A program made the translations under genes and the position numbers. Below, in pieces: positions 4,189 to 28,416 of a stretch of DNA of 64,000 nt. A model generated the notes under the pieces. It did no database searches, was not told the DNA's origin, and saw only the letters and a program-made list of their open reading frames with translations. This DNA is from Candidatus Bathyarchaeia archaeon (GTDB lineage: Archaea > Thermoproteota > Bathyarchaeia > 40CM-2-53-6): NCBI GenBank assembly GCA_049517415.1, contig JBEKSC010000008.1, positions 1-64,000 of the forward strand. Reading direction: 5' to 3'. Within the stretch, counting starts at the first letter, position 1. Every line of letters begins with the position of its first letter.

Positions 4189-4522
4189 TTTTCTGATCGT
4201 GTCGTGACATTAAGTTCCCATAAAGGGATTCACCAGCGGTCCCCTCTGGCTCCTCACCCAACTCACCGATTTCCTCATTGGTCATCGCTGAAGTTGGCTT
4301 CAGAACAGTGACGATTGGCCCCCATCGTATGCCCCTTAGAGTCGGCAGTGTCTTTCCACATTCGAGACACTGCTCCAAGCCTTCGGGGTTAGCTGTCCCG
4401 CAGGAAGAACAATAGATAGGTTTCAGTATTGATCCGCAATCAATGCAATACCTGGCATCCAGTTTGTTTACCCTTTTGCAAGAGGGGCACCTTACGATTG
4501 TACCTGCCAATCTACCAACCAC
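4178..4522 (-). CDS. Double zinc-ribbon protein
   Basis: Four CxxC pairs (CPSC, CIDC, CSSC, CLEC). Confidence 0.7.
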   Translation of the reverse strand: MVGRLAGTIVRCPSCKRVNKLDARYCIDCGSILKPIYCSSCGTANPEGLEQCLECGKTLPTLRGIRWGPIVTVLKPTSAMTNEEIGELGEEPEGTAGESLYGNLMSRHDQKIKR

Positions 4523-4599
4523 GATTTATGGAGGTTCGCTACACATCCAGACAAGTCTTTCGTAGTTGAACTTTGGTTTCTCGGTCGGGATGATTTCGA

Positions 4600-5870: not shown

Positions 5871-8645
5871 ATGTCAGCTACCCGGCAAGCCCTGAGGAAG
5901 GTGCGTGGCTTCCTAGGGAAGTACGTAAACCGCGAAACACTTGCCGGCCGTGTTGAAGGAACTCGCAAAGTTCTTTCAGGCATCTCTCGAGGAACAGCCA
6001 TAGAAGCAATTGTAGTTGGCTTGATTGTTCTCATAGCACTAGCCGTCCGAATAATGCCTATCCGCTGGGGATTCTTCCTAAACGAATTCGATCCGTACCT
6101 GCAATGGCGCATGGCACAGTACGTGGTCGATCACGGTTTCTTGGCGTGGTTTAACTGGCATGACACGATGAGTTGGTATCCATACGGCGCGGACATGCCC
6201 ACATGGAACCTCTACGGTACGGCCTTCGTAATAGCGGCAATTACGATGATACTGAATTATGTTGGCGTAAATGTAACCGTGTTTGTGGTTGCAATTATCT
6301 TTCCAGTAGTCGCCGGAACCCTAACCGTTCTAGCAGCATACTTCCTTGGAAAGGATTTCTGGGGAAAAGGCGCAGGATTGTTTACCGCCCTGTTCTTGGC
6401 TTTGAATCCAAGCAGTATCGGCCGAACCCAACTTGGTTTTCTCCGTCATGAGCCGCTTGGCATTCTCCTGATGATACTGATCTTCCTCTTCTTCAGAAGG
6501 TCGACTGTGCCAACCTCTTCAACCCGTAAGACGCTGATATACGCTGGCTTAACCGGCTTCATGCTCTTCTACCTGGCCGCGGAGTGGGCCGGAGGCCTAT
6601 ACCCGCTGGACCTACTGGTTCTCTACGTAGTTGTTTTAGGCGTACTGGGTCGTTCCTCGAAGAAACTCTTCCTAAGCTATTCTATCACTATGGGGATATT
6701 CTTACTCTTTACACCATTTTTGGTCCCGAAGCTTGGGTTAGCCTCACTTAGTGATTTCGGCTGGCTGGTGATCCCGGTTGGGGAAGTAGTCCTACTTGCT
6801 CGCGAAGCCTCCTCATATGTCACCAATAGGATGCACCAGATTTACGCGCTAACGGCGACGGTACTTGGAACCATAGCCGTTGTTGGCTTTCTTTCGTATT
6901 TCCACGTGGTTTCTTTCCCCTATGGCAAATTCTATGCCGTAATAGACCCGTTTGTCCGAGGTAACGTTCCAATCATCGCAAGTGTTGCGGAACATCAACC
7001 CGCAACATGGGGTTCGTTCTTCTACGAATTTGGAGGGCTTATTTTTCTGATTCTGTTCGGCTTCGTTTTCATCCTGCAAAGGGTTAGGAACGACGATATC
7101 TTCCTACTTCTATGGGGAGTCACTGCTGTCTATTTTGCGGCATCCTTCGTCCGTCTAACCTTGCTCCTTGCTCCGGCATTCTGCATATTAGCTGCCATAG
7201 GGACAGTGGAACTTGGAAAACCTGCAGTCGACATTGTGCGCGAGGCGGTTATCTATCCAAAGCATAAGACACGAGTCATAAGTAGAATTGGCCGAGAGTT
7301 TGGTGTCGCCATCTTCCTAATCCTCCTCATAATCATAATTCCGACCTTCTGGACGGCGGTGCGTGGTTCATACCAACCCGCCACAATCGTCACTTCGAGT
7401 ATACCCACAGCTCCAACAGCTGGGCAGGAATTCAAGTATGCAGATTGGCTTGAGGCGTTGTCGTGGATGCAACAGAACACGCCTACTGGTTCGGTTATTT
7501 TCGCGTGGTGGGACTATGGGTATTGGATCACAGCTCTAGGCAATCGGAAAACGCTCGCAGATAACGGTACCCAAAACGACACGCAGATAGCCGTGATAGC
7601 TCAAACCTTCCTCGACAATACCACTATGGCGATCCCTAATCTCCAGAAGTATAACGTATCCTACGTGGCTATCTTTATCACGCCTTCAGGTGGCAGTCAA
7701 GGAGGATACCAAGGGTTCGGCGAGGACGGGAAATGGTATTGGATGGCTCGCATCGGAAATAACACGATGTGGAACAACTATAAAGTGATCTACACGGAAA
7801 CTACTGTCGCCACTCAAAGTGGTAGCACCAGTTCGAGCTATACCCAATTGCTCGAGGACTCGAAAGGAAGAGTCGTAAGTAACGATACGATTGCAGACAA
7901 TAACCAGCTCAACGACCACACGATGTTAGGCTACATGATGGCTGAGGTAACAAATGCGGCAAATGAACATGCCTCTCCATACTTCACACGTGTCTTCTCT
8001 TCATCGAACAACTTTGTATTCCTCTTCCAGGTGAGAATTCTAAGGTCAGTTCACCTATCGATCAATCCAACCAAACACGAAATCCCATACGGACAGCAAG
8101 TGGTGCTTGCTGGGAGTCTTGGTGATGCCTCTGGAAACCCATTAAGCATCAACAACCCGTCGGTCGCATTAGAAACATCTACCGACAGTGGCCAAACGTG
8201 GCAGCAAATAACAACCGCGCCTGTCTCTCCAAACGGAACGTATAGCTACAACTGGACACCTGACGCTGGCAATTACATTATTCGAGCCCACTACCTAGGT
8301 GCTGTCGGACCGTACGCAGAGGCTGCGACTACGCCTGAAGCCCTACTTGTGCAAACCGGAACAGTAAATTTGAGTATCACAACACCCTCCCATTCAGTAA
8401 CGATCGGCCAGAACGTTACGGTGACGGTTCAAATGTCCCCGTTCGTGAGCGGAGCCAACGTAACCATATCGTATACCTTTGACAACAAAACATTTGTTCC
8501 GATCCAAACTGTAATCATGAATTCCCCCAGCATGAGTTTCACTTGGCTTGTTAACATACCTGGGAGCTTTACATTGGCCGCGAACTGGCCAGGAAACCAA
8601 AACTACAACCGAGCACTGGCGGAAATTACGCTCAACAAGTCATGA
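5871..8645 (+). CDS. aglB: Oligosaccharyltransferase AglB/STT3 with C-terminal Ig-like extension
   Basis: NEFDPY, multi-TM N-terminal half, SVAEHQP, WWDYG, DNGTQNDTQI; about 200-aa beta-rich tail. Confidence 0.93.
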   Translation: MSATRQALRKVRGFLGKYVNRETLAGRVEGTRKVLSGISRGTAIEAIVVGLIVLIALAVRIMPIRWGFFLNEFDPYLQWRMAQYVVDHGFLAWFNWHDTMSWYPYGADMPTWNLYGTAFVIAAITMILNYVGVNVTVFVVAIIFPVVAGTLTVLAAYFLGKDFWGKGAGLFTALFLALNPSSIGRTQLGFLRHEPLGILLMILIFLFFRRSTVPTSSTRKTLIYAGLTGFMLFYLAAEWAGGLYPLDLLVLYVVVLGVLGRSSKKLFLSYSITMGIFLLFTPFLVPKLGLASLSDFGWLVIPVGEVVLLAREASSYVTNRMHQIYALTATVLGTIAVVGFLSYFHVVSFPYGKFYAVIDPFVRGNVPIIASVAEHQPATWGSFFYEFGGLIFLILFGFVFILQRVRNDDIFLLLWGVTAVYFAASFVRLTLLLAPAFCILAAIGTVELGKPAVDIVREAVIYPKHKTRVISRIGREFGVAIFLILLIIIIPTFWTAVRGSYQPATIVTSSIPTAPTAGQEFKYADWLEALSWMQQNTPTGSVIFAWWDYGYWITALGNRKTLADNGTQNDTQIAVIAQTFLDNTTMAIPNLQKYNVSYVAIFITPSGGSQGGYQGFGEDGKWYWMARIGNNTMWNNYKVIYTETTVATQSGSTSSSYTQLLEDSKGRVVSNDTIADNNQLNDHTMLGYMMAEVTNAANEHASPYFTRVFSSSNNFVFLFQVRILRSVHLSINPTKHEIPYGQQVVLAGSLGDASGNPLSINNPSVALETSTDSGQTWQQITTAPVSPNGTYSYNWTPDAGNYIIRAHYLGAVGPYAEAATTPEALLVQTGTVNLSITTPSHSVTIGQNVTVTVQMSPFVSGANVTISYTFDNKTFVPIQTVIMNSPSMSFTWLVNIPGSFTLAANWPGNQNYNRALAEITLNKS

Positions 8646-16898: not shown

Positions 16899-17222
16899 CT
16901 AGGAATTTTCACGCCAAGTTGCCCCACAACTTGTGCACCGGAAGAACTGTGTTGAGGATTCATCTGCTCCGCGCGTTTGCACAAGCCAATAGAACGCCTC
17001 TTTGTGTCCACACTTGGGGCAATCAACTTTCGTCTTCGGTAGTGTACGAATTTTCTGTTCTTCTTTACCGATGACGACCACATTCTCTTTTTGTTGCTCC
17101 AACTTTTGCACCGTGCGGTCTGACCGCTTCGTCTCGTAGCCACATTTCGGGCAACTCAAGACGACGGATTTCTGTTTCTTTGTAGGCAGAAGAGCTAAAC
17201 CGCACTTTGGACAAAACTGCAC
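16899..17222 (-). CDS. tfs: Transcription factor S
   Basis: MQFCPKCG...CPKCG, QTRGADESSTQFFRCTSCG. Confidence 0.95.
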   Translation of the reverse strand: MQFCPKCGLALLPTKKQKSVVLSCPKCGYETKRSDRTVQKLEQQKENVVVIGKEEQKIRTLPKTKVDCPKCGHKEAFYWLVQTRGADESSTQFFRCTSCGATWRENS

Positions 17223-17663
17223 TTTGTTCGCCTTTTTGATTGGCCTTAAGGTCCTTTAGGGGCTCTAGGGGTTGTTAATTTGGGTTACTTATCCGCCCGC
17301 CCTTAGCCTAGGGTTTAGGGTTGCGAAAACTAACCAAACCGTGCTAGCTGCCTGGAGCGGGAGCATCTAAGTATTGGCGGAGTTGGGGAGGTTCAACGTG
17401 TAAACCTTTTCGTAATTGGAGACTGCAGTTGCAAAGAGGCCTTACAATACGCTGCATTATCGTAATCATGCTCTAGGTAGCATGGTCTTCTTCTTCGACT
17501 TTCACGAACACGATTGGCCAGTAAAATGCCTCGTAAAGTATGAATCCTAATTTCCGGCTCTCACGCCTGATCTTTGGTGACGCGGATGGGTACGAATCGC
17601 TACCTCCAGAAAAGCCCACTACTTTTTCCAGCAAATAACTCGACTATTAGAGCCTTTCAGGTC

Positions 17664-17725
17664 ACGGTTCAATTTGCGTTGCCCGCACCAGTAGACTCTC
17701 ACACACGTTTTTCAACGACGAACGA
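17664..17725 (+). repeat. Dispersed repeat family copy A
   Basis: acggttcaatttgcgttgcccgcaccagtagactctcacacacgtttttcaacgacgaacga; aligns by eye with the copy at 18813-18871. Confidence 0.8.
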
Positions 17726-17782
17726 TCATGTTCGGAATCGGTGGGTGTTATCGCTCCTTTCTTATCGCATCGTGAAGCGAAT

Positions 17783-18727
17783 CTACTTAGCACGTTTTGG
17801 CATCCAGAATAGGTAGTACATGAGGTAGAATGCCGCGATTCCGCTGAAAGGAGAGAATTTGCTTAGAAGTCGTCGAACTTCATTTGAGCCAATTCGCTTG
17901 CCTTTGAAATACGCTTGTGAGATTGCGCGTTGAATTCCTAGGTCGTCAGCAGGCAATGAATTCACCCTTCCCATGCCCCGAATCAACGTATATTCCGCAG
18001 TCCAAGGACCAACGCCCCTAATCTTGGTTAGCTCTGCAATCGCCGTCTCATCATCCATCCTCCTTAGACCTTCAAGGTCTAACTCCTTGCCTTCAACTTT
18101 CTTGGAAAGTTCACTTATGTACAATGCCTTATTCCTACTGAGCCCAACAGCCATCATTTGGTTCAGCTTTGCTTTCGCTAAAACCGCGGGAGTTGGAAAG
18201 GCATAGAAGCTTCTTCCCTCGAACTCCACACTCTCTCCATACTTCTCAATCAGGCGAGAGCGTACCGCTGCTGCAGCCTCGAGTGAAATCTGCTGCTCGG
18301 TAATGGCGATTACCAAGGCTTCAAAAATAGTCGGCGGTGAAACAGCTCTCAGCCCTCTGAGCTTCCATGAAACAATACTCATCAATCGGTCTTTCTTAAC
18401 AAACGAATAGAACTTGTCAAAATCAAACGAAGCTGCAAACATCGTATGCAGTAGTCTCTTCAATGCTTTAACTTCCTGAGCCAACAAACCTGGGTGAGCT
18501 TCCACGCTAAGACGTGGTTTTTCGATGGTTCCCTTGGATGTAACTAGGACAAGGACTGGATTCTCAGCAAGGTGAAGAACTCTTTTGTAAACACCGTTTT
18601 CATATACGTCTGGAAGGCTTTTCTCAAACCGACAGTGAATCCCCGCGCTTCTTTCAAAGTCGAATGGGGATTCGGGAAAAATGAAGAAACCTGTTTTGGA
18701 ACCAGTGATTCTGAGGGTCTTATCCAT
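17783..18727 (-). CDS. alkA: AlkA-family DNA-3-methyladenine glycosylase
   Basis: FEALVIAITEQQIS, AFPTP, HhH motif LTKIRGVGPWTAEY, PADDLGIQ. Confidence 0.92.
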   Translation of the reverse strand: MDKTLRITGSKTGFFIFPESPFDFERSAGIHCRFEKSLPDVYENGVYKRVLHLAENPVLVLVTSKGTIEKPRLSVEAHPGLLAQEVKALKRLLHTMFAASFDFDKFYSFVKKDRLMSIVSWKLRGLRAVSPPTIFEALVIAITEQQISLEAAAAVRSRLIEKYGESVEFEGRSFYAFPTPAVLAKAKLNQMMAVGLSRNKALYISELSKKVEGKELDLEGLRRMDDETAIAELTKIRGVGPWTAEYTLIRGMGRVNSLPADDLGIQRAISQAYFKGKRIGSNEVRRLLSKFSPFSGIAAFYLMYYLFWMPKRAK

Positions 18728-18791
18728 GAGTTGCTCGTAGCACGCTGAGAGAGTTACATGTTAAGTATTTGTGGATCTTGGCCACTTTAGT

Positions 18792-18877
18792 CGCACACAC
18801 TTCCTAGCGATTACGGTTCAAATTTGCCTGCTCGCACCAGCTGACCCACACACACTTTCTATGACGAACGACGACGG
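18792..18877 (+). repeat. Dispersed repeat family copy B (about 1.5 tandem units)
   Basis: cgcacacacttcctagcgattacggttcaaatttgcctgctcgcaccagctgacccacacacactttctatgacgaacgacgacgg. Confidence 0.8.
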
Positions 18878-19872
18878 CGGCCTTTTGGGGTCTTTCCGAG
18901 GATCTTACAAAGTTCGACGAAACTGCTTATGGCCAATGGAATACCCACTCCGAGGTAAAGCGAAGAGAAGAATATAGATTGGTCACGTTGTGTAACTAAA
19001 TTCGTAATCTGAAAATCAACTAACACAAAACTACCAGAGGCGTAAAGTGGGCTCGCTCTACTAATATCCCACTGGTACCACAGATTTCCTCCAGAGGCGA
19101 AAATGTTGTCTTCAGTCGGCGATGATTCAATTATGGCACCAGCAGGTTGCGCCACGTCCAGAACGTAACTCTCGCTGTCAAATTGGTTGAGAGGAGTTAC
19201 AGGACCAGGTACTATGTTCTAGATTGCAGGGCCGTAGTCGAACCGGTTGGTCAACTCGTATGTGGAGTAGGAATTCCGCAAGAGTGGCGTTTTAATGATA
19301 ATTGTCGCATTGAACCAAAAGAAATCATAAGACGTGTTATGATTTATCATACGATTTGCGCGAACCCAGAAATATGATAAGCCTGTTGCTTTGTCGAATC
19401 CCGGAGAGTAAGTAAAGTTAGGATTAGGATATCTGCTACTCATGCTTGTACCGAAAGAGCTCATTGGAGTCAGCGTCTTTTGCATGCTGAAAGATACATC
19501 CCAATCCAGTATTGTCGCAGAAGAATTGTATGGAATCTCAGCTCCGAACACTATCTGGCTCGAGTTGAACTGCGTTTTGAAGGAGCACGATATGGAAAGA
19601 ACTGCAGCGTTGAGATCTGGCCTTATCCCGTAGACCATAACTGCAACTCTTGTTGAGGTGATTCCGTAATTCCCGGCCAGAGTTGGATAATGTGAGGCGA
19701 AAATAGCTAACCCGTAAGATGAGGATGCAGGCGCATTACTAGGGAAGTTGAAAACGTTCTGTAGGCCCGTGGATCCACAGAAAGCAAGTACGATACCACT
19801 AAAGAGAAAAATGAGCAGGAGATAAGGCACTCTCCGGTTGACGACTCTTCCGAAGCTATCTATGCTAACCAT
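18859..19872 (-). pseudogene. Membrane-anchored extracellular protein interrupted by one in-frame TAG (19219-19221)
   Basis: ORFs 19219..19872 and 18859..19155 share a frame and the 63 nt between them are open (PAI*NIVPGPVTPLNQFDSESYVLDVAQP); N-terminal signal/TM and C-terminal TM. Confidence 0.7.
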
Positions 19873-20060
19873 CTAACCGAGACCCTGTTATTAGACCTGA
19901 ATAGTCCCTATAGCCACTAATGAATCGACCAGTGTCAATAACGTACGATTTAGGCTTACACGCCTACAATCATCCCCCAGCAGGAACTGCAATCGCCAAG
20001 CTAATTCAGCATGAACCGGGGGGGAATCTCAGCGTACACATGGAAACCCTTACGTGGACT

Positions 20061-20129
20061 TGTGGGTCTAGTGGTGCGCGCGCACACACTTTCCAACGAC
20101 AAACGACGACGGGTCGAATTTTGCTGCTC
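20061..20129. repeat. Dispersed repeat family copy C (composite of inverted and forward halves)
   Basis: tgtgggtctagtggtgcgcgcgcacacactttccaacgacaaacgacgacgggtcgaattttgctgctc. Confidence 0.8.
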
Positions 20130-20181
20130 TTACCGAAGTTTTTTATGGATTCATTACGCACCTTTAGCTGGGTTTGATGTA

Positions 20182-20448
20182 ATGAACATGAAGTTGATGG
20201 TTCTTGTTTCTGTTGTTGCTGGTTTGGTGATTACGCTGATCACCGGGTTGGTTGATGTGACGCCTATGCACCTGGTGGGTGCAACTTGGCATGGTTGGCC
20301 GCTCCCTTGGTTCTATGTAATTGTCTACCCAGGCTCACCGATCTCGGTTAATTGGCTCAACTTAATCGGTGATATCATCGTCTGGTTTGTCATAGTCCTC
20401 GCAGTTGCCTTAGTGATTTCGAAATTCAAGAAGACGTCCAAAACTTAG
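20182..20448 (+). CDS. Small two-TM membrane protein
   Basis: MNMKLMVLVSVVAGLVITL...WHGWPLPW...NLIGDIIVWFVIVL; the longer 20011 start would run through repeat C and is unlikely. Confidence 0.7.
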   Translation: MNMKLMVLVSVVAGLVITLITGLVDVTPMHLVGATWHGWPLPWFYVIVYPGSPISVNWLNLIGDIIVWFVIVLAVALVISKFKKTSKT

Positions 20449-20549
20449 GATGCATTCGAGGTAACGATCGGAATCCGCTGAGCCCATGGCACAATTCGTC
20501 CCGAGAAGGGTGAGGCTCAGAGAGGGGGGCAGGGGATTCTGACCCCAAT

Positions 20550-20741
20550 TTAGCGGTACACATAGCCTTGCAGTGAAGCAACGGAACAATGCGAGTTCAA
20601 ATTCCGATGCTCGTACCAGAAGGCGGCCCCTCCATCTGAGGTCAGGTCGCCCACTAAAGCCACAACATCCGGTCGAATTCTATCTACCCGTTCTTCGTAT
20701 CCTTCCCATTTCACAACATCAGAGAAGGCAAGTATCTTCAT
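20550..20741 (-). pseudogene. Truncated metallophosphoesterase (N-terminal motifs only)
   Basis: MKILAFSD...RPDVVALVGDLT then sequence degenerates and stops; no GNHD or later motifs. Confidence 0.65.
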
Positions 20742-20749
20742 CGAGCCCA

Positions 20750-21964
20750 CTAGGTCCAACCGCCAAGCTTCGTCATGACGGGTTTGTAGATGGTGAATTG
20801 GTCTTTACAGGCGTTCTTGCGCAAATATTGAAGGGTGCTCTTTCCAATCCCAAGGCGTCTTGCCTTGGAGCCGGTCAGTGCAAGAATCCTAGCTCGCACT
20901 TCTCGGTCATCACTCCTCTGCAGCCTCGGAGCGGGTTCTGCAAAATCAAGCGTGAGTGATTTCTCGAGTAGAAATCGGCCCAGCTCGTTGGTCTTCTGCT
21001 CAATAACAGTATCCCATTTCAGAACTCGGTGTTTGCATGCTACGCCAGCGTTGAATCGCTCACGAATGAGATCGATGAAGCGCTGCTTCGCTTCAACCTC
21101 GAAACGGTATCGGTAATCGTCCCCTGTGAAGTAGAAGTCGGATAGGTTCAAGGCTTCAGACTGGAATGCCGCGATGACCGAAATGTCAGATAGCCACCTG
21201 AACGGCTCCTGTAAATCATACACTAAAGACTGCTTTGTCTGATAGTCGCTGACATCATGAAAGAAACCGACCGAGGGTTCCAGGCCGACCGCGTTTATTG
21301 CTCGTCGACATTCACCCTCTAGGAAACCATAACCGTAGTTTAGGGCCAAGTTCACGGGATCTGAGGCGTTGTTCTGGTGGCTTGAAGTCATTCGCTCTTG
21401 GAAATCCAAGTGCTCGGGCATCACTTTCCCGAATGCTTCCCAGTATCTCCTAGCTACACGTCCTTCGACAGTTCGTAGGTCTGGCACTGTGGAGGCTCTT
21501 CTGAGCTTTGATGCCTCAAGCTTCGTTACTTGAATCTCCCTAGGAATATCATACCGCTCGGCCAACCAATCAAGAACTTGCAGACTCCTCTCAATTTTCG
21601 CTTGAACGAGCGCTCTGGCTATGCTGAACTTCTTCTTCGGATCGTTCGCAGCTAGAATTTGTGCAGCCCGCAGATCGGCCTTAACAGGCATTGGAGGCAG
21701 AACACTAGAAATCAGACTTCCATCGAAGTTCATGATGAAGACAGGAACCTTATGCTTCGACAGCCAGTGAAACGCTTGGAGAGAAATGTACCCACTGTGC
21801 CCATCGATGATGATGGTGCCGTAAGGGAAACGTCGCGGACGAAAACGGTGCGTAGATTCTGCTCTGTCATCTTCTCGCCAGTTGATGACCTCAAGTTCAG
21901 ATCTTGACTTGAGACTGTTAACGCGGATCTTGGCGCCCCAACCGGATAGATGAAGCGGATTCAA
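20750..21964 (-). CDS. cas1: Solo Cas1 of casposase type with C-terminal HTH
   Basis: MNPLHLSGWG, IIIDGHSGYISLQAFHWL, catalytic EGRVARRYW / GFFHD / LVYDLQEPFR, ASDPVNLALNYGY, C-terminal ARRLGIGKSTLQY HTH. Confidence 0.92.
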   Translation of the reverse strand: MNPLHLSGWGAKIRVNSLKSRSELEVINWREDDRAESTHRFRPRRFPYGTIIIDGHSGYISLQAFHWLSKHKVPVFIMNFDGSLISSVLPPMPVKADLRAAQILAANDPKKKFSIARALVQAKIERSLQVLDWLAERYDIPREIQVTKLEASKLRRASTVPDLRTVEGRVARRYWEAFGKVMPEHLDFQERMTSSHQNNASDPVNLALNYGYGFLEGECRRAINAVGLEPSVGFFHDVSDYQTKQSLVYDLQEPFRWLSDISVIAAFQSEALNLSDFYFTGDDYRYRFEVEAKQRFIDLIRERFNAGVACKHRVLKWDTVIEQKTNELGRFLLEKSLTLDFAEPAPRLQRSDDREVRARILALTGSKARRLGIGKSTLQYLRKNACKDQFTIYKPVMTKLGGWT

Positions 21965-21966
21965 AC

Positions 21967-22413
21967 CTAATGCCCTCCCTGTCTACTTTCATATTCCTTG
22001 AGCTTCTGGTCGGCCAACTTGCCTGCTTCCTTCAATCGTTGTATCTCTCTTTCAGTAGGCCTTGATCTCGTCTTTGTGTTTGCACGGGCCACTATTGATT
22101 GCCAGCGTTCGTTGAGATATCCTACAGCGAAGCTTTCGCCTACAGGACTTGTAAGGAATTCAACGAATTTATCGGGATCGACTGCGAATGCCAACACTAT
22201 TAATCCGTAGTTGCTGAAGCAAGATTTCCAACCTTTTTTCAACTGTTCAGCATCGAGCCAGTTCCTTTTCGCTGAGAACATACTCTCAGCGAGGAAAGCC
22301 GTATACCGGGTTGAGGACCAGTGGGTCAATGCATACTTTAGGTACAGCGACCTTTCGTTAACCATTGTCAATCTAGAGTACGGTCTCATTGCAGTTGACT
22401 CAGGAGTCCTCAT
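21967..22413 (-). CDS. Hypothetical protein directly upstream of cas1
   Basis: 148-aa ORF ending 2 nt before the cas1 start, suggesting translational coupling; no recognised motif. Confidence 0.5.
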   Translation of the reverse strand: MRTPESTAMRPYSRLTMVNERSLYLKYALTHWSSTRYTAFLAESMFSAKRNWLDAEQLKKGWKSCFSNYGLIVLAFAVDPDKFVEFLTSPVGESFAVGYLNERWQSIVARANTKTRSRPTEREIQRLKEAGKLADQKLKEYESRQGGH

Positions 22414-22744
22414 GCTATCACATGGCGATCCAATATCTTCGATGCTGAATAGCGCGTTCTTGCATCGAGTAATGAACTATCTCGCTGACTGGTCACCGTT
22501 CAAAACAAACAGTTATCCAAACGATGGTCTGAAACTGTACTCCGAGACAGGGAAAATGCTTAACGCCATTTTTGTGAGAGTTGCGGATGGCAAGACCTGG
22601 CACATTGCCTTTCATCTCAAGCCGGAAACGTCAACCGACGCGATCAAACCTGACATGGTCAAGCTACTCTCAATGCTAGCATCTTTAGGTTTGGTGAAGA
22701 ACCCTGTTGTGAGAGAACGAGTGGGTAAGAAACCTTGGATATGA
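22412..22744 (+). CDS. Hypothetical protein (3' part of ORF 22211..22744)
   Basis: Open frame; ATG at 22412 avoids overlap with the minus-strand ORF; no recognised motif. Confidence 0.35.
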   Translation: MLSHGDPISSMLNSAFLHRVMNYLADWSPFKTNSYPNDGLKLYSETGKMLNAIFVRVADGKTWHIAFHLKPETSTDAIKPDMVKLLSMLASLGLVKNPVVRERVGKKPWI

Positions 22745-22852
22745 TATTAGTGATAGACAGACTGAACAAGTGTGAGAGACCGTTCTCCGAACGAGAATGA
22801 ACCATCTCCAATTTTCTCCTCGACACACAAAGCGACGCTGCCAGAATTAGAT

Positions 22853-22948
22853 TCGGTCGTCCGTCTAGTGTGTGTGCGCACCATTAGACCCACACCCTTT
22901 CTAACGACGCTGGTCCAAATTACGACTCTCGCAAGCACTAGGTCCACA
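22853..22948. repeat. Dispersed repeat family copy D (inverted partner of C, about 1.5 units)
   Basis: ...agtgtgtgtgcgcaccattagacccacaccctttctaacgacgctggtccaaattacgactctcgcaagcactaggtccaca. Confidence 0.8.
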
Positions 22949-23168
22949 ATGAAGGAAAACGCGATAGTTGGACAGTTGAAATCACAGATAACGCAAATGG
23001 CGACTGCCAACTCTACAGGAGGCTGATTGGAATAATTTGATTGGATTGACGAAGAGTCTTACTTCTTCGCCGATTGCTTAGCGTAGGCCGCCAAACCACC
23101 ATCCGACACGCCATAATACTTAACCATTTGACTAAGCTTTTGCCATAAAGCTTTGCCAATTCAAAGCG

Positions 23169-24071
23169 GTGCAGAATTTCTTGGAAAATCTAACCTTTCA
23201 CACCTCAAAGATTGATAATTTCTCAGGCTTTTCAAAACCATTAGACGAGGCGCGCTACGTGGTGGTAGGTGTCCCATACGATCACACAAGTACATATCGA
23301 GCGGGGTCACGTTTCGCCCCACGAACAATTCGCGATGCATCATTGAACATTGAGACCTATAGCCTCCGAACGGCAATCGACATCGAAAACGTTCCAATAC
23401 ACGATGCAGGAGACCTGCATATAGTCGATAATGCTTCTGAAACACTCGACAGGCTAAAAGGGGTTACAAAGGACATTCTAGCCCTTGGGAAGATGCCAGT
23501 CATCATCGGCGGAGAGCACACAATCACTCAAGCTCCAGTCCGTAGCCTTCCGCACCCTGTCGGGGTTGTTAGTTTTGATGCCCACGGCGACCTGAGGGAT
23601 GAATATGGTGGCGGAAAATTATCCCACGCCACAGTCTTGAGGCGCATTACCGAGATTGTTGGGACGGATAGCGTTTTCGTATGCGGTCTGCGAGCCCTAT
23701 GCAAAGAAGAGGTAGATTTTATTGAACTAGGGAAAGTCCAGACGATGACGCCATGGGAAATTAGGGAGAAAGGCTTAGCCAAGGCGACGGAACGCATCAA
23801 AGCCTTTGCTCAAAAGTTCAAACACACATACCTTACCATAGATACTGATGTCTTAGACCCAGCCTTTGCACCCGGGGTCGCAAACCCTGAATTCGATGGC
23901 TTAACGCCTCAGGAACTCCTGACACTAGCCACCGCTGTGGTTGACGAAAAAATGGTCGGCTTCGACCTCGTGGAGGTATGTCCAAACTATGATACCGGCG
24001 TCACTTCCGTAGCTGCCGCCCGTCTTATCTTCGAAGTTATCGCCAAAGCAGAGAAATCGAGACAGCACTAA
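23169..24071 (+). CDS. speB: Agmatinase (ureohydrolase family)
   Basis: GVPYD, GGEHTIT, FDAHGDL, TIDTDVLDPAFAPG, DLVEVCP. Confidence 0.93.
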   Translation: MQNFLENLTFHTSKIDNFSGFSKPLDEARYVVVGVPYDHTSTYRAGSRFAPRTIRDASLNIETYSLRTAIDIENVPIHDAGDLHIVDNASETLDRLKGVTKDILALGKMPVIIGGEHTITQAPVRSLPHPVGVVSFDAHGDLRDEYGGGKLSHATVLRRITEIVGTDSVFVCGLRALCKEEVDFIELGKVQTMTPWEIREKGLAKATERIKAFAQKFKHTYLTIDTDVLDPAFAPGVANPEFDGLTPQELLTLATAVVDEKMVGFDLVEVCPNYDTGVTSVAAARLIFEVIAKAEKSRQH

Positions 24072-25384
24072 TCGATTCTTTGTAATTTCGCTATGAAGTA
24101 CCCATTGCATTCGTGTATGTGAGGGTAGAACCTCTGGCAGAGATCAAATCCCCTTAACCCAATGGAACCCAAGAACGGCACTTGCCGGACTACTTTGAAG
24201 TCTGGATTTTTCTTTAGAAATTCTTCGATTATACATTCATTCTCTTCTGGCAGGATGCTGCAAGTACAATAGGCGAGGGTTCCGTTAGGCTTGACGTAAT
24301 CCGATGCGTTCTGAATGATGGAGTATTGCCTCAATCCGTACTCACTTACGCGCGTGGGCGTGAGCTTCCATTTTCCGGCGGGGCTCCTTGCAAAAACTCC
24401 GCTGTTTGAGCATGGTGGGTCAACGATGACAACATCCGCGCTAGTCTTCAGGGGAAGCCTTCTCGCGTCAGCGCGGATGGGTCTTGCAATCTCGCATCCG
24501 CACCGCGCCATTTCCTTCTTCCAATACGCGAGTCTGCGGCCTGAAAGGTCGACCGAATAGATTTCGCCTCTATTCTGCATCTGGGCAGCTGCGTGGGTGG
24601 TTTTGTTCCCAGGTGCAGCGCATATGTCTATTACGATTTGCCCAGGCTTTGGGGAAGCGACGAGGCCGGCTGTAATGCTCGCCAAATCTTGCACAACTAC
24701 GTCACCTGATTTGATGATCCGGGACGGCTGACCTTTCATCCCCAAACGAAAGACGCCATCGACGCCTTCGACCTTCAAGCCTCCTAACTCTGCCGTCATT
24801 TCCGCTTGACTAACGGGCTTCAGTAAGTTTAGTCGGACGTAGGTAGGCATGGCATGCAAGTCCCGGCGCAGAATTCGGAGTGCAAAGCTTCTTCCAAAAA
24901 CATTCACTAGCCGTTCGACGAACCAAACAGGATGGCAGGTTTCCAGAGAAAGCCTTTCGAATTCAGGCAAGGGATCCTTGGTAACTTTTCTTCCCGCAAC
25001 GATTAGGGCGATTTGTTCCTCATGGATGCGGAGTTCCTTCCAACCTAAAATTTGCCGGGCCAATTCCACGTGACGTTCCAGATCGCTTTGGCGCGTCCCA
25101 TCAACATACTTGAGGTATGCGATAATTTTCAGGAAGCTCCTTATCCCGTGCGGAGTCCTCTCGATTTCATCCTTGGAGACTACTTGTGAAATCATATGGT
25201 CAATTCGGTTTTGGAAACGAGTTGTTTCCATGATGAGTCGGTACGCTTGGCGGAGTTCATTCGCTTCCTTTACGTCCATCTGGTCAGCGGCCTTGAATAG
25301 GGCGGTTCTCTCTCCGGTGCCTGCGTAAGCCATCCAGCTCAGGGCTTCAATGGCTACTGCGAGGGAATTCTTCATCAAGGCCAT
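24068..25384 (-). CDS. RsmB/NOP2-family RNA m5C methyltransferase
   Basis: QDLAS, DICAAPGNKT, VDPPCS, YCTCSILPEENE. Confidence 0.92.
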   Translation of the reverse strand: MALMKNSLAVAIEALSWMAYAGTGERTALFKAADQMDVKEANELRQAYRLIMETTRFQNRIDHMISQVVSKDEIERTPHGIRSFLKIIAYLKYVDGTRQSDLERHVELARQILGWKELRIHEEQIALIVAGRKVTKDPLPEFERLSLETCHPVWFVERLVNVFGRSFALRILRRDLHAMPTYVRLNLLKPVSQAEMTAELGGLKVEGVDGVFRLGMKGQPSRIIKSGDVVVQDLASITAGLVASPKPGQIVIDICAAPGNKTTHAAAQMQNRGEIYSVDLSGRRLAYWKKEMARCGCEIARPIRADARRLPLKTSADVVIVDPPCSNSGVFARSPAGKWKLTPTRVSEYGLRQYSIIQNASDYVKPNGTLAYCTCSILPEENECIIEEFLKKNPDFKVVRQVPFLGSIGLRGFDLCQRFYPHIHECNGYFIAKLQRID

Positions 25385-25806
25385 ACAACCCCATTATCGC
25401 TAGTTTAACAGGCAATTATTTAGTGCGAGCTTCGCCATTCCGTTACGATACTGTCCGCTCAATATGTTGCATAATGCGCCGCCGACGATGTTGTAGGTTT
25501 GTTCAAACAACCTCGCCAGCAGGCTCGACAAGAATACTCGTCCACATTACGGGAAAGTAGAGAACAGACACGGTCAGATTCGATAGCGCAAACGGCACTT
25601 GGCTCAGAGCTGGTTTTGGTCCGGGACGTGTGTGACGGAAAATCTGATAGAAAATGTAAGAGTATATAAAGGGAACGCACTTGCCCAGTTTCGGGACTAG
25701 ACCCTAGATGTCTTCCTATCTAAAATACGCGTCCAAACCGGGTTTTCTGGTAGATCAACAGCTCATAACTTCTGATAATGACACTGACGAAACAGAGGTC
25801 TAGCCT

Positions 25807-28416
25807 ATGTCGAAAACACTTGAAAGCTACTTTACGGAAAAGCGCGAGGAGATCAAACTGGCCCCGAGGCCTCTGGTCAAGCGGCAGAGCCTAGTCTTCT
25901 ATCCGGCAATGCCAGCGTCAATCCCTCCATCATACTTGGTCTCCATAGGGTATGACGGGGATCTCAAGAAATGTTTTCTGCGTCTCTACGAACCTAAGTC
26001 GCATAAAATCTATTTTTGGTTTGACGACTCGGGTCACAAACCCTACTGTTACAGCAAGCAGTCGGTCGGGGAGCTTCAGAGAGTGGAGGCGGTAGCGAGG
26101 AACCCTGGGTTCGACCATTTCGAGGAGGAAACGAAGTTTGACGCGCTTCGGAGTGAGCAAGTTAAAGTGACGAAGATCGTCGCCAAAGACCCACTGACAA
26201 TCGGTGGAAAACCTACCGGTTCAATGCGCGACGCCATAACCGCATGGGAAGCTGACATAAAGTACGTCGAGAATTTCATCTATGACCGCGGGCTCGAACC
26301 TGGCATGATGTACGAGTTTAAAGACAAACAGTTGGCCGCGGTGAAATACGAACTACCGGAAGAAGCAGCGATGGAAATTGACAGTCTCTTCCGGGATGAA
26401 TCTCAAGAGTACCAAGGCCTAGCAAGAGAATGGATGCGGCTCCTTGAGTGCCCCGTACCAGAGTACAGGAGGGCGGCCGTAGACATTGAAGTTTTTCAGG
26501 CCGTAGAGTCACGTATTCCCGATCCAGAATTATCGGAACATCCAGTAATTTGTGCAAGCCTAGTCGGATCCGATGGTGCCAAACGCGTACTCCTCTTACG
26601 ACGAGAAGGGACTCCTGAGGGTCAGGCTTCGTTACCAACTGGCGTCGAATCGGAATTCTATGACACCGAGGAAGAATTGTTAATCGCTCTATTCCAAGCT
26701 TTCCTGGATTATCCGATAGTAGTCACATTCAACGGTGACGATTTTGACCTGAAATACCTCTACCACCGCGCTCAAAGGTTGGGTTTTAGAAATGAAGAAA
26801 TTCCAATCGAGTTAGGCCGCGATGTCGCCTTTCTCAAGTATGGTGTCCATGTAGACCTCTACAAGTTCTTCTTCAACAGGTCTATCCAAATTTACGCGTT
26901 CGGCCAGAAGTACCGGGAGAACACGCTGGACGCTGTCGGCGCGGCGCTAATCGGCACTCCAAAGGTCGAAATAGAATCAGTCTCGAAAGCATCCTACAGG
27001 CAATTGGCCGCCTACTGCTATCGTGACTCCGAAATTGTCCTCAACCTGACTTCTTTCAACGAAGATTTGGTCATGAAGTTGATGACGGCGATATCACGAA
27101 TCAGCTACATGACGCTGGACGATGTCTCAAGACAGGGAGTGTCGGGTTGGATTCGAAGCATACTGTTCTGTCACCACCGCAAACGAGGATACTTGATTCC
27201 TAGGAGAGACGAGATTCTGGAGGTCAAAGGCCAAACTGCTACGGAAGCTGTGATTAAGGGCAAGAAGTACAAGGGCGCAATAGTTGTTGAACCTAAACCA
27301 GGCGTCCATTTCAACGTCGCAGTCCTCGACTTTGCATCACTGTACCCTTCTATCATCAAGGTCTGGAACCTCGGCTACGAGACAGTTCGCTGTCCACACG
27401 TGGACGAGGCTTGCAGGAAGAACCTAATCCCAGGAACGCCCCACTGGGTCTGCAAAAAGAAGCGGGGACTTGAAAGCCTGCTGATTGGTTCGCTTAGGGA
27501 CCTGCGAGTTGGCAGGTACAAGGTCAAGTCGAAAGACCGTTCCTTACCACCGAACATGAAGAGTTGGTACAAAGTCGTATCCGATGCGCTGAAGGTGGTA
27601 CTAAATGCCTCCTACGGTGTCTTCGGTGCGGATAATTTTGCGTTGTATTGTCCGCCTGTCGCCGAGGCCACTGCCGCAATAGGCAGGCACGTTATAACTC
27701 AAGCATTGCAGAAAGCGCAGGAACTTAATTTGGAAGTCTTCTACGGTGACACGGATTCCATATTTCTTCAAGGCCAGGATAAAGTCTCGCTTAACAAGCT
27801 CATCGAATGGTCTACCAGCCAGCTCAGGATGGAGTTGGAAATCGACAAGAACTATCGTTACCTTGCCCTTAGTTCAAGGAAGAAGAACTACTTCGGCGTC
27901 CTGCCCGATGGAAGCGTAGACATCAAGGGATTGACAGGGAAAAAGCGGCATATTCCAGAGTTCTTGCACGGCGCCTTTTACGAAATGGTTTCGGCCCTGG
28001 CCGAAGTCAAATCGCCGGAAGACATCGACATTGCGAAAGCGAAAACAATTGATATCGTGAAACGCAGTTACGTGAGACTGCGGAACAGGGAATACACGCT
28101 CCAGGAACTAGCCTTTTCAATGATGATGAGCAGAACCCCGGAAAATTACACAAAAACGACCCCGCAGCACGTGAAAGCGGCCAAGCAATTACAAGAAGCC
28201 GGCGCAGAAATGAAACCAGGCGATATTATATCCTTTGTCAAGGTACGGGGCGAGCCCGGAGTTAAGCCTGTGCAACTTGCTAGGCTAGAAGACGTAGACA
28301 CTGAGAAATACATCGAATATATCCGGGGCACATTCGAGCAGGTACTTGACGCTTTAGGAGTCGAATTCGAAGATTTGGCTGGCGTAAAGAAACTGGAATC
28401 CTTCTTCAATGGGTAA
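25807..28416 (+). CDS. polB: Family B DNA polymerase (cellular PolB1 type)
   Basis: Exo DIEV, FNGDDFD, YCYRD; pol DFASLYPSII, KVVLNASYG, YGDTDS, KKNYFG, KGLTGKK. Confidence 0.96.
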   Translation: MSKTLESYFTEKREEIKLAPRPLVKRQSLVFYPAMPASIPPSYLVSIGYDGDLKKCFLRLYEPKSHKIYFWFDDSGHKPYCYSKQSVGELQRVEAVARNPGFDHFEEETKFDALRSEQVKVTKIVAKDPLTIGGKPTGSMRDAITAWEADIKYVENFIYDRGLEPGMMYEFKDKQLAAVKYELPEEAAMEIDSLFRDESQEYQGLAREWMRLLECPVPEYRRAAVDIEVFQAVESRIPDPELSEHPVICASLVGSDGAKRVLLLRREGTPEGQASLPTGVESEFYDTEEELLIALFQAFLDYPIVVTFNGDDFDLKYLYHRAQRLGFRNEEIPIELGRDVAFLKYGVHVDLYKFFFNRSIQIYAFGQKYRENTLDAVGAALIGTPKVEIESVSKASYRQLAAYCYRDSEIVLNLTSFNEDLVMKLMTAISRISYMTLDDVSRQGVSGWIRSILFCHHRKRGYLIPRRDEILEVKGQTATEAVIKGKKYKGAIVVEPKPGVHFNVAVLDFASLYPSIIKVWNLGYETVRCPHVDEACRKNLIPGTPHWVCKKKRGLESLLIGSLRDLRVGRYKVKSKDRSLPPNMKSWYKVVSDALKVVLNASYGVFGADNFALYCPPVAEATAAIGRHVITQALQKAQELNLEVFYGDTDSIFLQGQDKVSLNKLIEWSTSQLRMELEIDKNYRYLALSSRKKNYFGVLPDGSVDIKGLTGKKRHIPEFLHGAFYEMVSALAEVKSPEDIDIAKAKTIDIVKRSYVRLRNREYTLQELAFSMMMSRTPENYTKTTPQHVKAAKQLQEAGAEMKPGDIISFVKVRGEPGVKPVQLARLEDVDTEKYIEYIRGTFEQVLDALGVEFEDLAGVKKLESFFNG

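Follow-up and report, generated by a model that had tools for sequence, protein, structure and literature searches.

The first 64,000 nucleotides of contig JBEKSC010000008.1 from a Candidatus Bathyarchaeia archaeon (assembly GCA_049517415.1; this whole stretch is called the window) contain a cas1 gene that is bracketed by imperfect inverted repeats at 20061-20090 and 22867-22894, and the question raised by this locus is whether these repeats are the terminal inverted repeats of a compact, 2.8-kb Cas1 transposon, as the initial annotation had suggested. The answer favored here, with a probability of roughly 0.6, is that both arms are copies of the insertion target of a polymerase-less family of casposons, and that the window cas1 resides in a decayed and rearranged member of this family. 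In what follows, G000 denotes this genome and C1, C2, C3 and so on its contigs, other G numbers denote related genomes, and L numbers denote cas1 or repeat loci.

The inverted pair itself is confirmed. An inverted-repeat search of positions 17000-26000 returned 17 pairs, the longest and best of which joins 20061-20087 to 22868-22894 (27 nt, 89% complementary, separated by 2780 nt), and the originally noted match at 26 of 28 positions with a 2-nt indel is reproduced when the arms are read directly (CGCGCGCACACAC versus CGCACACACAC). The weaker similarity said to continue inward corresponds to a second pair, 20080-20106 with 22853-22879 (27 nt, 70%), and the enclosed content is likewise as described, comprising cas1, open reading frames (ORFs) at 21967-22413(-) and 22211-22744(+), a 69-amino acid ORF at 20550-20759(-) and a membrane ORF at 20182-20448(+). 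Reading of the flanks also bore out the reported lack of a target-site duplication outside the arms. The further claim that this is the closest pair in its family holds within the window, where the 18-nt cores agree at 17 of 18 positions, but both arms are near-consensus copies of a genome-wide family of 49, and since 13 copies of that family match a 16-nt pattern exactly, high identity between the arms is to be expected from their closeness to the consensus. The left-arm 18-mer occurs four times in the window at up to three mismatches (17684-, 18833-, 20061+ and 22877-; designated sites A, B, C and D, respectively), compared with 0.03 occurrences expected from 100 shuffles.

The 18-nt core, termed module E (TGTGGGTCTAATGGTGCG), is found in 49 copies across the genome at three or fewer mismatches, as opposed to one to three for five shuffled motifs. 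A profile of the part adjoining E detects 53 sites, and merging both sets yields approximately 65 repeat loci on 18 contigs, clustered as islands. Three modules recur in these loci: E, a (CA)n run, and module I, an ACGACG-rich stretch ending in GGTTCAAAT plus 9-10 nt.

The role of E is apparent from related cas1 loci, 14 of which were searched for flanking repeats, with both flanks available for 13 (window included). Six related elements share a single plan, in which a leader is followed by a duplication starting with CGCACCA and then by an inverted end that opens with (CA)n or (CCG)n, while the far side is the mirror image without the leader; in all six, E constitutes a direct target-site duplication of 14-15 bp (up to 18 bp). 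In L020 (7.1 kb), the direct copies CGCACCAGCTGACCC agree at 15 of 15 positions, the inverted ends extend over 66 nt at 88%, and the leader GGTTCAAATTTGGGTGCT stands beside one copy. The 9.0-kb element of L067 has direct copies agreeing at 14/14 and 45-nt inverted ends at 98%, the 11-kb element of L065 (the same sequence as L030) has direct copies at 6565 and 17544 agreeing at 15/15 together with (CCG)n-led ends and the leader, and the 9.4-kb element of L068 has direct copies at 14/15 and weak, (CA)n-led ends. The remaining two form a tandem pair on C3, where the identical 18-mer TGTGGGTATAGTGGTGCG occurs at 135128, 143137 and 151766 and the leader follows the last copy; both have (CA)n-led ends, the first (8.0 kb) carrying a 5'-truncated cas1 and the second (8.6 kb) a full one. 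Among the relatives, terminal inverted repeats are thus present in L020, L067 and L065, and the direct copies agree at 15/15, 15/15, 14/14, 14/15 and, in two elements, 18/18. Because direct copies of E lie just outside the inverted ends in all six elements, E is the duplicated target segment and not an inverted terminus, and it is the (CA)n or (CCG)n immediately inward of E that marks the start of each true end. This architecture is observed directly in the six elements.

These observations bear on the proposal that 20061-20090 and 22867-22894 are the terminal inverted repeats of a compact 2.8-kb Cas1 transposon with E as part of its terminus. In its favor, sites C and D form the best inverted pair of the region, with cores matching at 17/18 and inward similarity of about 70%, the enclosed cas1 is intact, and L065/L030 also has an inverted copy of E at an end-like inner junction beyond cas1, resembling site C of the window. 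Nevertheless, L020, L065 (outer pair), L067, L068 and the two C3 elements all have E as direct copies beyond their inverted ends; the identity between C and D is that expected of near-consensus copies; no duplication flanks the arms; and the 2.8-kb interval contains a partial target site (20595-20619) and a gene fragment. Furthermore, site C has neither a leader nor (GT)n on its outer side, and the comparative breakpoints, which should coincide with the arms of such a transposon, fall instead at 17225 and 23114/23141. A compact transposon therefore appears unlikely. The initial annotation was partly supported in its interpretation: the Cas1-transposon context is right, given a casposase-type cas1 and repeats that are part of Cas1-transposon biology, and the right arm looks like a true end, but the 18-nt core is a direct target-site duplication in six relatives rather than a terminal inverted repeat, and a neat 2.8-kb transposon did not stand. 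Its expectation that homologous cas1 loci would have similar inverted pairs held for some of the 13 loci with both flanks, as inverted ends are strong at L020, L065 and L067 and weak, as a (CA)n pair, at L068, with the window contributing its 27-mer; it failed at five loci.

The second line of evidence comes from the product of cas1 (20750-21964, reverse strand), which has 404 amino acids, is full length and matches Pfam Cas_Cas1 at 1.2e-51. Its best solved relative is 6opm, the casposase of Methanosarcina mazei (E-value 4.3e-69, residues 36-403), ahead of the best CRISPR Cas1 at 4.5e-21. The residues aligned to E162, H232 and E247 of 6opm, named as the active site of the M. mazei casposase in the available text of PMC6977970, are conserved, and the alignment, which is one of sequence only, extends to residue 403 of 404, through the C-terminal helix-turn-helix (HTH) region. 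The window Cas1 is accordingly placed by sequence relatedness in the casposase branch as a predicted casposase-type integrase with its catalytic residues kept, and the C-terminal HTH after the Cas1 fold that distinguishes family 2 casposases can be recognized in it at the same level. There are 950 relatives in databases, and the best 120 of these 950 are about 400 amino acids long and 67-80% identical; close homologues carry the label Bathyarchaeia or Bathyarchaeota. Cas2 (PF09827) was not found in the genome, no tandem repeat array was detected in 10000-32000, and Rfam families gave no match in the window; a CRISPR-Cas adaptation module, with cas1 beside cas2 and a CRISPR array, was thus not found here. 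An exact 40-nt word of cas1 had no match in metagenome contigs, a result of little weight, as that collection may omit this genome and very close ones.

The genome has two full cas1 genes and three or four fragments, and as many as five full copies occur in related genomes. Truncation spared the 3' part of the gene in all 13 shortened copies examined, and no shared repeat was found at their 5' breaks except on C3. Five of six cas1 copies and fragments lie within 3 kb of a repeat site, compared with 7% of the genome. When loci are oriented by cas1, 27 of 30 profile matches (13 loci; the matches are not independent) are on the cas1 strand, and five loci have none. Among the neighbors of cas1, only Cas1 itself recurs widely (18 of 20 loci), with five small families recurring at three loci each.

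In the favored explanation, the casposase would recognize a site resembling a tRNA 3' end, consisting of a leader with a T-loop-like GGTTCAAAT, 9-10 nt and a segment starting with CGCACCA, and would join both element ends at staggered positions on the borders of this segment, after which repair would duplicate 14-15 bp. Repeated use of such sites and subsequent decay may have generated islands in which copies of E alternate with ends, solitary ends and cargo genes. We infer that the casposase made these junctions, which resemble those in M. mazei; there, the portions seen of PMC6977970 and PMC4779613 describe a 14-bp duplication starting with CGCA at the end of a tRNA-Leu gene, targeting that depends on 30 bp upstream, solitary ends, and a single duplication common to elements in tandem.

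Applied to the window, this explanation would have each arm adjoin a (CA)n-led element end. Site D would be a true end with its target copy (22844-22894), and its partner would probably be site B (18833-18877), the two delimiting a 4.0-kb element with a duplication that has decayed to 12/15. Site B (18792-18877, forward) reads (CA)n, a short ACG stretch, the leader ACGGTTCAAATTTGCCTGCT, E- at 18833-18850 (CGCACCAGCTGACCCACA) and a (CA)n-led end TTTCTATGACGAACGACGACGG; its order of leader ACGGTTCAAATTTGCCTGCT, target CGCACCAGCTGACCC and end ACACACAC TTTCTATGACGAACGACGACGG is the canonical one, and it is proposed as the leader-proximal boundary of the cas1 element. Site D comprises an end at 22844-22876 (forward; an ACGACG-rich stretch on the other strand, then (GT)n) and the target copy E- at 22877-22894 (forward; CGCACCATTAGACCCACA), the core of the right arm, which is direct relative to A and B and inverted relative to C. 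It is followed at 22895-22946 (forward) by the next target-repeat unit, made up of CCC, leader-like TTTCTAACGACG..GGTCCAAAT and a degenerate E- CGCAAGCACTAGGTCCACA. Site D thus runs from the end ...GGTCGTCCGTCTAG TGTGTGTG through the target copy CGCACCATTAGACCC into the next unit, ACACCC TTTCTAACG..., in the same way as the leader-distal side of L020. The 177-amino acid ORF at 22211-22744 (forward; no family match) supports D as a real element end, as its 32%-identical homologue at C3:135272-135700 adjoins the end of the 8.0-kb cas1 element. Separated by 4044 nt, the target copies at B and D are direct, and cas1 has the orientation seen in L020, L065 and L067, towards the leader. The canonical cas1 unit is more likely to be 18851-22876 than 20061-22894.

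Site C, the left arm (20061-20140, forward), consists of an inverted E+ at 20061-20078, CGCG(CA)n, an ACGACG-rich stretch and a degenerate leader-like stretch. Because the copies at C and D are inverted, they could not have been produced by a single integration, and C may represent an inner inverted junction that arose from a second event or a rearrangement. Site A (17664-17725, forward) has the tRNA-like leader ACGGTTCAATTTGCGTTGCC, E- at 17684-17701 (CGCACCAGTAGACTCTCA), CACAC and an ACGACG-rich, end-like stretch, and its nhmmer match covers 17664-17695. Site F (20527-20619, forward) is an extended pseudo-tRNA-like leader with a truncated target CGTACCAG at 20612-20619, in the same orientation as A and B (profile match 20595-20619); it is located 131 nt downstream of cas1, in fusion with the 69-amino acid ORF.

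The genes between these sites are mostly without assignment. A gene of the HhH-GPD base-excision repair family (17783-18727, reverse) lies between sites A and B and has a 72%-identical copy in another context in G017. Two ORFs of 98 and 217 amino acids (18859-19872, reverse) between B and C have no Pfam family and no paralogue, and a small hydrophobic ORF of 88 amino acids (20182-20448, forward) has no family match. The 69-amino acid ORF (20550-20759, reverse), called a gene fragment originally, has no Pfam family or paralogue, and its N terminus may resemble metallophosphoesterase motifs. The casposase-type cas1 is directly preceded, across a 2-nt gap, by an ORF of 148 amino acids (21967-22413, reverse) without a family match, and a winged-HTH gene occupies this place at related loci. 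The gene content of the window is archaeal, including primase large subunit, PCNA, TFS, family-B polymerase and an RsmB-type methylase.

Comparison with related genomes places the whole region in a larger island. An interval of 5.9 kb (17226-23113) that contains all four copies of E is private to this genome and lies at a synteny breakpoint: in G014 (the closest relative, ~92% identical), G018 and G004, homology stops at 17225 and resumes at 23114 or 23141. In these three genomes, the island flanks are on different contigs or ~700 kb apart and have no repeats beside them, and no empty site is definable from them. In no other genome compared do the PriL-PCNA-TFS and agmatinase-RsmB-PolB blocks adjoin each other, these being on different contigs in G014 and ~700 kb apart in G018, so the island marks a point of chromosomal rearrangement, which could explain the inverted target copy. 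Positions 20373-20480, which cover the 3' end of the small membrane ORF and the bases following it, are 100% identical, on the reverse strand, to the last 108 bases of C2 (G000:C2:174039-174146) and then diverge; this is an assembly branch inside the interval, representing either a second copy or a strain variant joined to another neighbor, the region of a ParA-like gene.

The islands of this genome carry ordinary accessory genes, often one per interval, and other genomes contain individual intervals by themselves (83-94% identity), the breakpoints falling at the repeat units or within them. At G000:C12:1-9000 (L003), for instance, single accessory genes (GNAT, CMD, EamA, pirin, cyclase and racemase) are each separated by a repeat unit, and several recur singly elsewhere at 83-94% identity, such as the EamA gene at G014:C3:220500-221452. 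Paralogues of the TATA-binding protein adjoin repeat units at G000:C12:14-583 and G000:C50:3779-4456, and related genomes have several matching copies. A fragment of an IS110-family transposase (Pfam Transposase_20; G000:C8:85309-85707, L011:15309-15707) has repeat sites on either side, at 85.8 and 86.4 kb, close to a contig end. Repeat units also occur head to tail with a period of ~48-66 nt and no gene between them (G000:C2:853-1040; G000:C39:256-360 and 4427-4526), and on C39 a 100-nt double repeat unit is itself duplicated 4.2 kb apart. A hairpin formed by repeat doublets was considered and rejected, as pairing is not kept between paired copies of E in hairpin-like units (12-15 of 18 positions complementary), so a structural role is not indicated.

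Of the other genomes of the genus, 20 of 22 carry the E motif, as do 9 of 10 in a second genus and, with one match each, 2 of 22 in a third; it is hardly present elsewhere in the order, and a control with the reversed pattern gave 0-1 matches per genome. At the genus level, g1 and g15 have casposase as well as E, whereas g12 is nearly without both (casposase in 0 of 22 genomes, E in two of 22 with one match each).

Such repeats might also be host intergenic sequences, namely elements of the repetitive extragenic palindrome (REP) type, regulatory sites or recombination hot spots, with cas1 a mere passenger in variable islands. This would account for their abundance in five genomes without Cas1, for their intergenic and unoriented placement relative to genes, for the single genes found alone elsewhere with breakpoints at repeat edges, and for the predominance of ordinary accessory genes in most intervals. 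It does not fit the six cases in which perfect direct copies of E, 14-18 bp long, adjoin long inverted ends and precisely frame a cas1 element, nor a duplication whose length and CGCA start match those of the known casposase duplication. The co-occurrence of casposase and E by genus, the co-location of cas1 copies with repeats and the unkept complementarity of doublets also oppose it, and a purely host origin is considered quite improbable.

The likeness of the repeats to tRNA, together with an island that begins near a tRNA-Ser gene (below), also counts in favor of the casposon-target explanation. Read as module I followed by the complement of E, the unit has the form ...ACGACGACGG TTCAAAT N13 CCA..., with T-loop, 13 nt and CCA spaced as they are at a tRNA 3' end. 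Among the matches of the repeat profile is the 3' end of the true tRNA-Arg(TCT), with 21 of 25 positions agreeing in a hand count, and the tRNA genes of this genome encode CCA. On the genome scale, ARAGORN with introns allowed predicts only 30 tRNA genes, nearly all of them intron-bearing (with some introns predicted at >1 kb) and most encoding the 3' CCA; a default run found none in the 64-kb window. The repeat was rejected as a functional tRNA or tRNA half, as the T-stem is unpaired in most copies and neither ARAGORN nor Rfam gave matches in the window. About 40 nt upstream of the T-loop-like leader are common to window positions 20527-20619 and L020:11600-11760 (GGGATTCTGACC.CAATTTA.CGGTACACATA.CC) and align loosely with the part from anticodon loop to CCA of an intron-bearing tRNA-Arg(TCT) gene (C1:120540-120671). 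The insertion target may be a pseudo-copy of the 3' part of tRNA-Arg(TCT), although the extended leader shows only a loose resemblance to the 3' part of that intron-bearing gene.

Elements that integrate at tRNA genes by means of a tyrosine or other site-specific recombinase would leave attachment-site cores, and the tRNA-like parts would then be displaced 3' ends. Consistent with this are the tRNA-3'-like sequence with CCA, the length of the repeats, which exceeds that of any duplication, and an island on C3 that begins 108 nt after a tRNA-Ser gene. At that gene, synteny with G004 ends at the CCA of the tRNA and synteny with G014 ends inside E after CGCAC, and almost no island content 3' of the same tRNA-Ser is shared between G000 and G014 or G004. 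A weak Phage_integrase match also lies beside a cas1 fragment on C9 (E-value 2.9e-5, below the curated cut-off), the only match to integrase families among 132 island ORFs. On the other hand, no integrase family is found in the bounded elements L020, L065/L030, L067 and the C3 elements, these elements have long inverted ends, which are absent from integrase-type elements, and the identical stretch is only 14-18 bp and lies exactly between end and leader. Of the explanations discussed here, attachment sites are the least probable.

Several observations weigh against the favored reading, that the arms are target copies of a polymerase-less casposon family. In the window, the agreement of 12/15 between B and D is no better than that of two family members by chance of descent, and the copies that do agree, C and D (14 of the first 15), are inverted. 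The ends are weak, since 9 of 300 shuffles reach the observed local score for the inner ends of B and D, and 16 of 300 reach that of C and D. Among the 13 loci with both flanks, no flanking inverted pair was found at five (L060, L062, L063, L066 and L069), and three others (L061, L064 and C3a) have only weak pairs near the E-value limit that are unlinked to the repeat family; the C3a element is defined by its duplication and not by an inverted pair. The orientation of repeats relative to neighboring genes is random (25 same, 24 opposite), as expected of insertion but also of intergenic repeats of another kind. In length, the leader greatly exceeds any duplication, and the chemistry of integration does not account for its ~65 copies per genome, which call for some other cause. 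Near-consensus copies of E (16-nt motif) are also present in five members of the genus without Cas1 in a PF01867 search (33 in G018, 27 in G013, 13 in G016, 8 in G005 and 2 in G001), and the leader and (CA)n forms are unchanged in G018. The repeats can therefore be kept without a resident casposase, and the conservation of E in such genomes stays outside the favored explanation, unexplained.

Another departure from known casposons concerns the DNA polymerase, which is called invariable or ubiquitous in casposons in the portions seen of PMC6452270 and PMC9966878. Neither the window interval nor any of the six bounded elements has an ORF that matches a family-B polymerase (PolB), though a polymerase of an unrecognized family may be encoded by one of the unassigned ORFs. 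All four PolB genes of this genome lie outside cas1 elements. The one at 25807-28416, 3 kb from the right arm, is chromosomal, as its neighbors are kept in G014, G004 and the Cas1-less G018. Two of the four PolB matches (G000:C7:15875-17065 and G000:C46:8478-9698) have one in-frame TAG each, for which gene breakage, a problem of intein or frame, or recoding could be responsible. Casposase elements that lack a recognizable polymerase, yet have perfect duplications and ends that are nearly so, raise questions about the definition of casposons as self-synthesizing; their replication would proceed without a polymerase of their own, and they point to another mode of movement, either cut-and-paste or dependent on host replication. 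Literature searches, which did not extend to supplementary tables, found no description of casposons in Bathyarchaeia or of polymerase-less casposons. The cargo varies; winged-HTH genes stand upstream of cas1, and TIR-domain, methylase, ParB-like and HNH genes are among the rest. As cargo of the TIR-domain, methylase, HNH, Schlafen/AlbA and ATPase kinds is present, the islands may matter for archaeal defense.

The machinery of CRISPR adaptation is regarded as derived from casposons, and the carrier lineage consists of widespread soil and peat archaea. According to the sections seen of PMC6977970 and PMC6452270, the repeats of CRISPR have been proposed to originate from a duplicated casposon target. 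The tandem pair on C3, with three identical target copies next to a leader, has the configuration proposed for this origin, and as the target is clearly defined (a leader and a 15-bp segment, ~65 per genome), the proposal is testable with one protein and short oligonucleotides. A bolder and rather doubtful extension is that a minimal casposon system without its own polymerase is at work in these Bathyarchaeia, in which any DNA with short (CA)n- or (CCG)n-led ends, including cas1-less cassettes mobilized in trans, would be inserted beside a pseudo-tRNA leader with duplication of a 15-bp target. If so, leader-adjacent arrays of identical repeats would form between gene-carrying inserts, providing a present-day counterpart to the transition that has been proposed between a casposon target and a CRISPR repeat array, and, in archaea, a means of gathering accessory and defense genes that resembles integrons.

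Among known systems, integron cassette arrays are similar in that the genes between repeats occur singly in other genomes with breakpoints at repeats. They differ in that no IntI-type recombinase was seen here, orientation is random, and the repeat is not an attC-like folded palindrome (no attC model was run); integron-like polarity, with a repeat 3' of each co-oriented gene, is ruled out by the near-even split of orientations, and an IntI gene with co-oriented, attC-bounded cassettes is not what the islands contain. REPIN-RAYT systems, which are bacterial and whose recombinase is an HUH transposase, share dispersed short repeats, repeat doublets and, in the window, a recombinase gene flanked by inverted copies; in the present case, however, the recombinase is Cas1, other cas1 copies have direct flanks, and doublets do not keep pairing. 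CRISPR arrays with Cas1-Cas2 likewise combine a Cas1-family integrase with leader-adjacent integration, a duplicated target and direct repeats between inserts, whereas here there is no Cas2 and no short-period array, the inserts carry genes and measure 0.05-11 kb, and the repeat is 14-18 bp and occurs in both orientations.

The closest likeness is to family 2 casposons (M. mazei and Aciduliprofundum boonei). Shared features are the C-terminal HTH region of the casposase, terminal inverted repeats, HNH and HTH genes in some copies, a duplication of 14-15 bp from CGCA at a site of the tRNA-3'-end type with an upstream recognition stretch, tandem elements with one common duplication, and solitary ends. 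The differences are that no family-B polymerase gene is found here in the six bounded elements or the window element, that residues R191 and R192, which contact the target in M. mazei, align with H and Q in a hand-read alignment, that copy number is high with many 5'-truncated cas1 remnants, and that each genome has ~65 dispersed pseudo-tRNA-like sites, mostly not real tRNA genes. Taken with these likenesses and differences, the family is a polymerase-less casposon variant with a dispersed pseudo-tRNA target.

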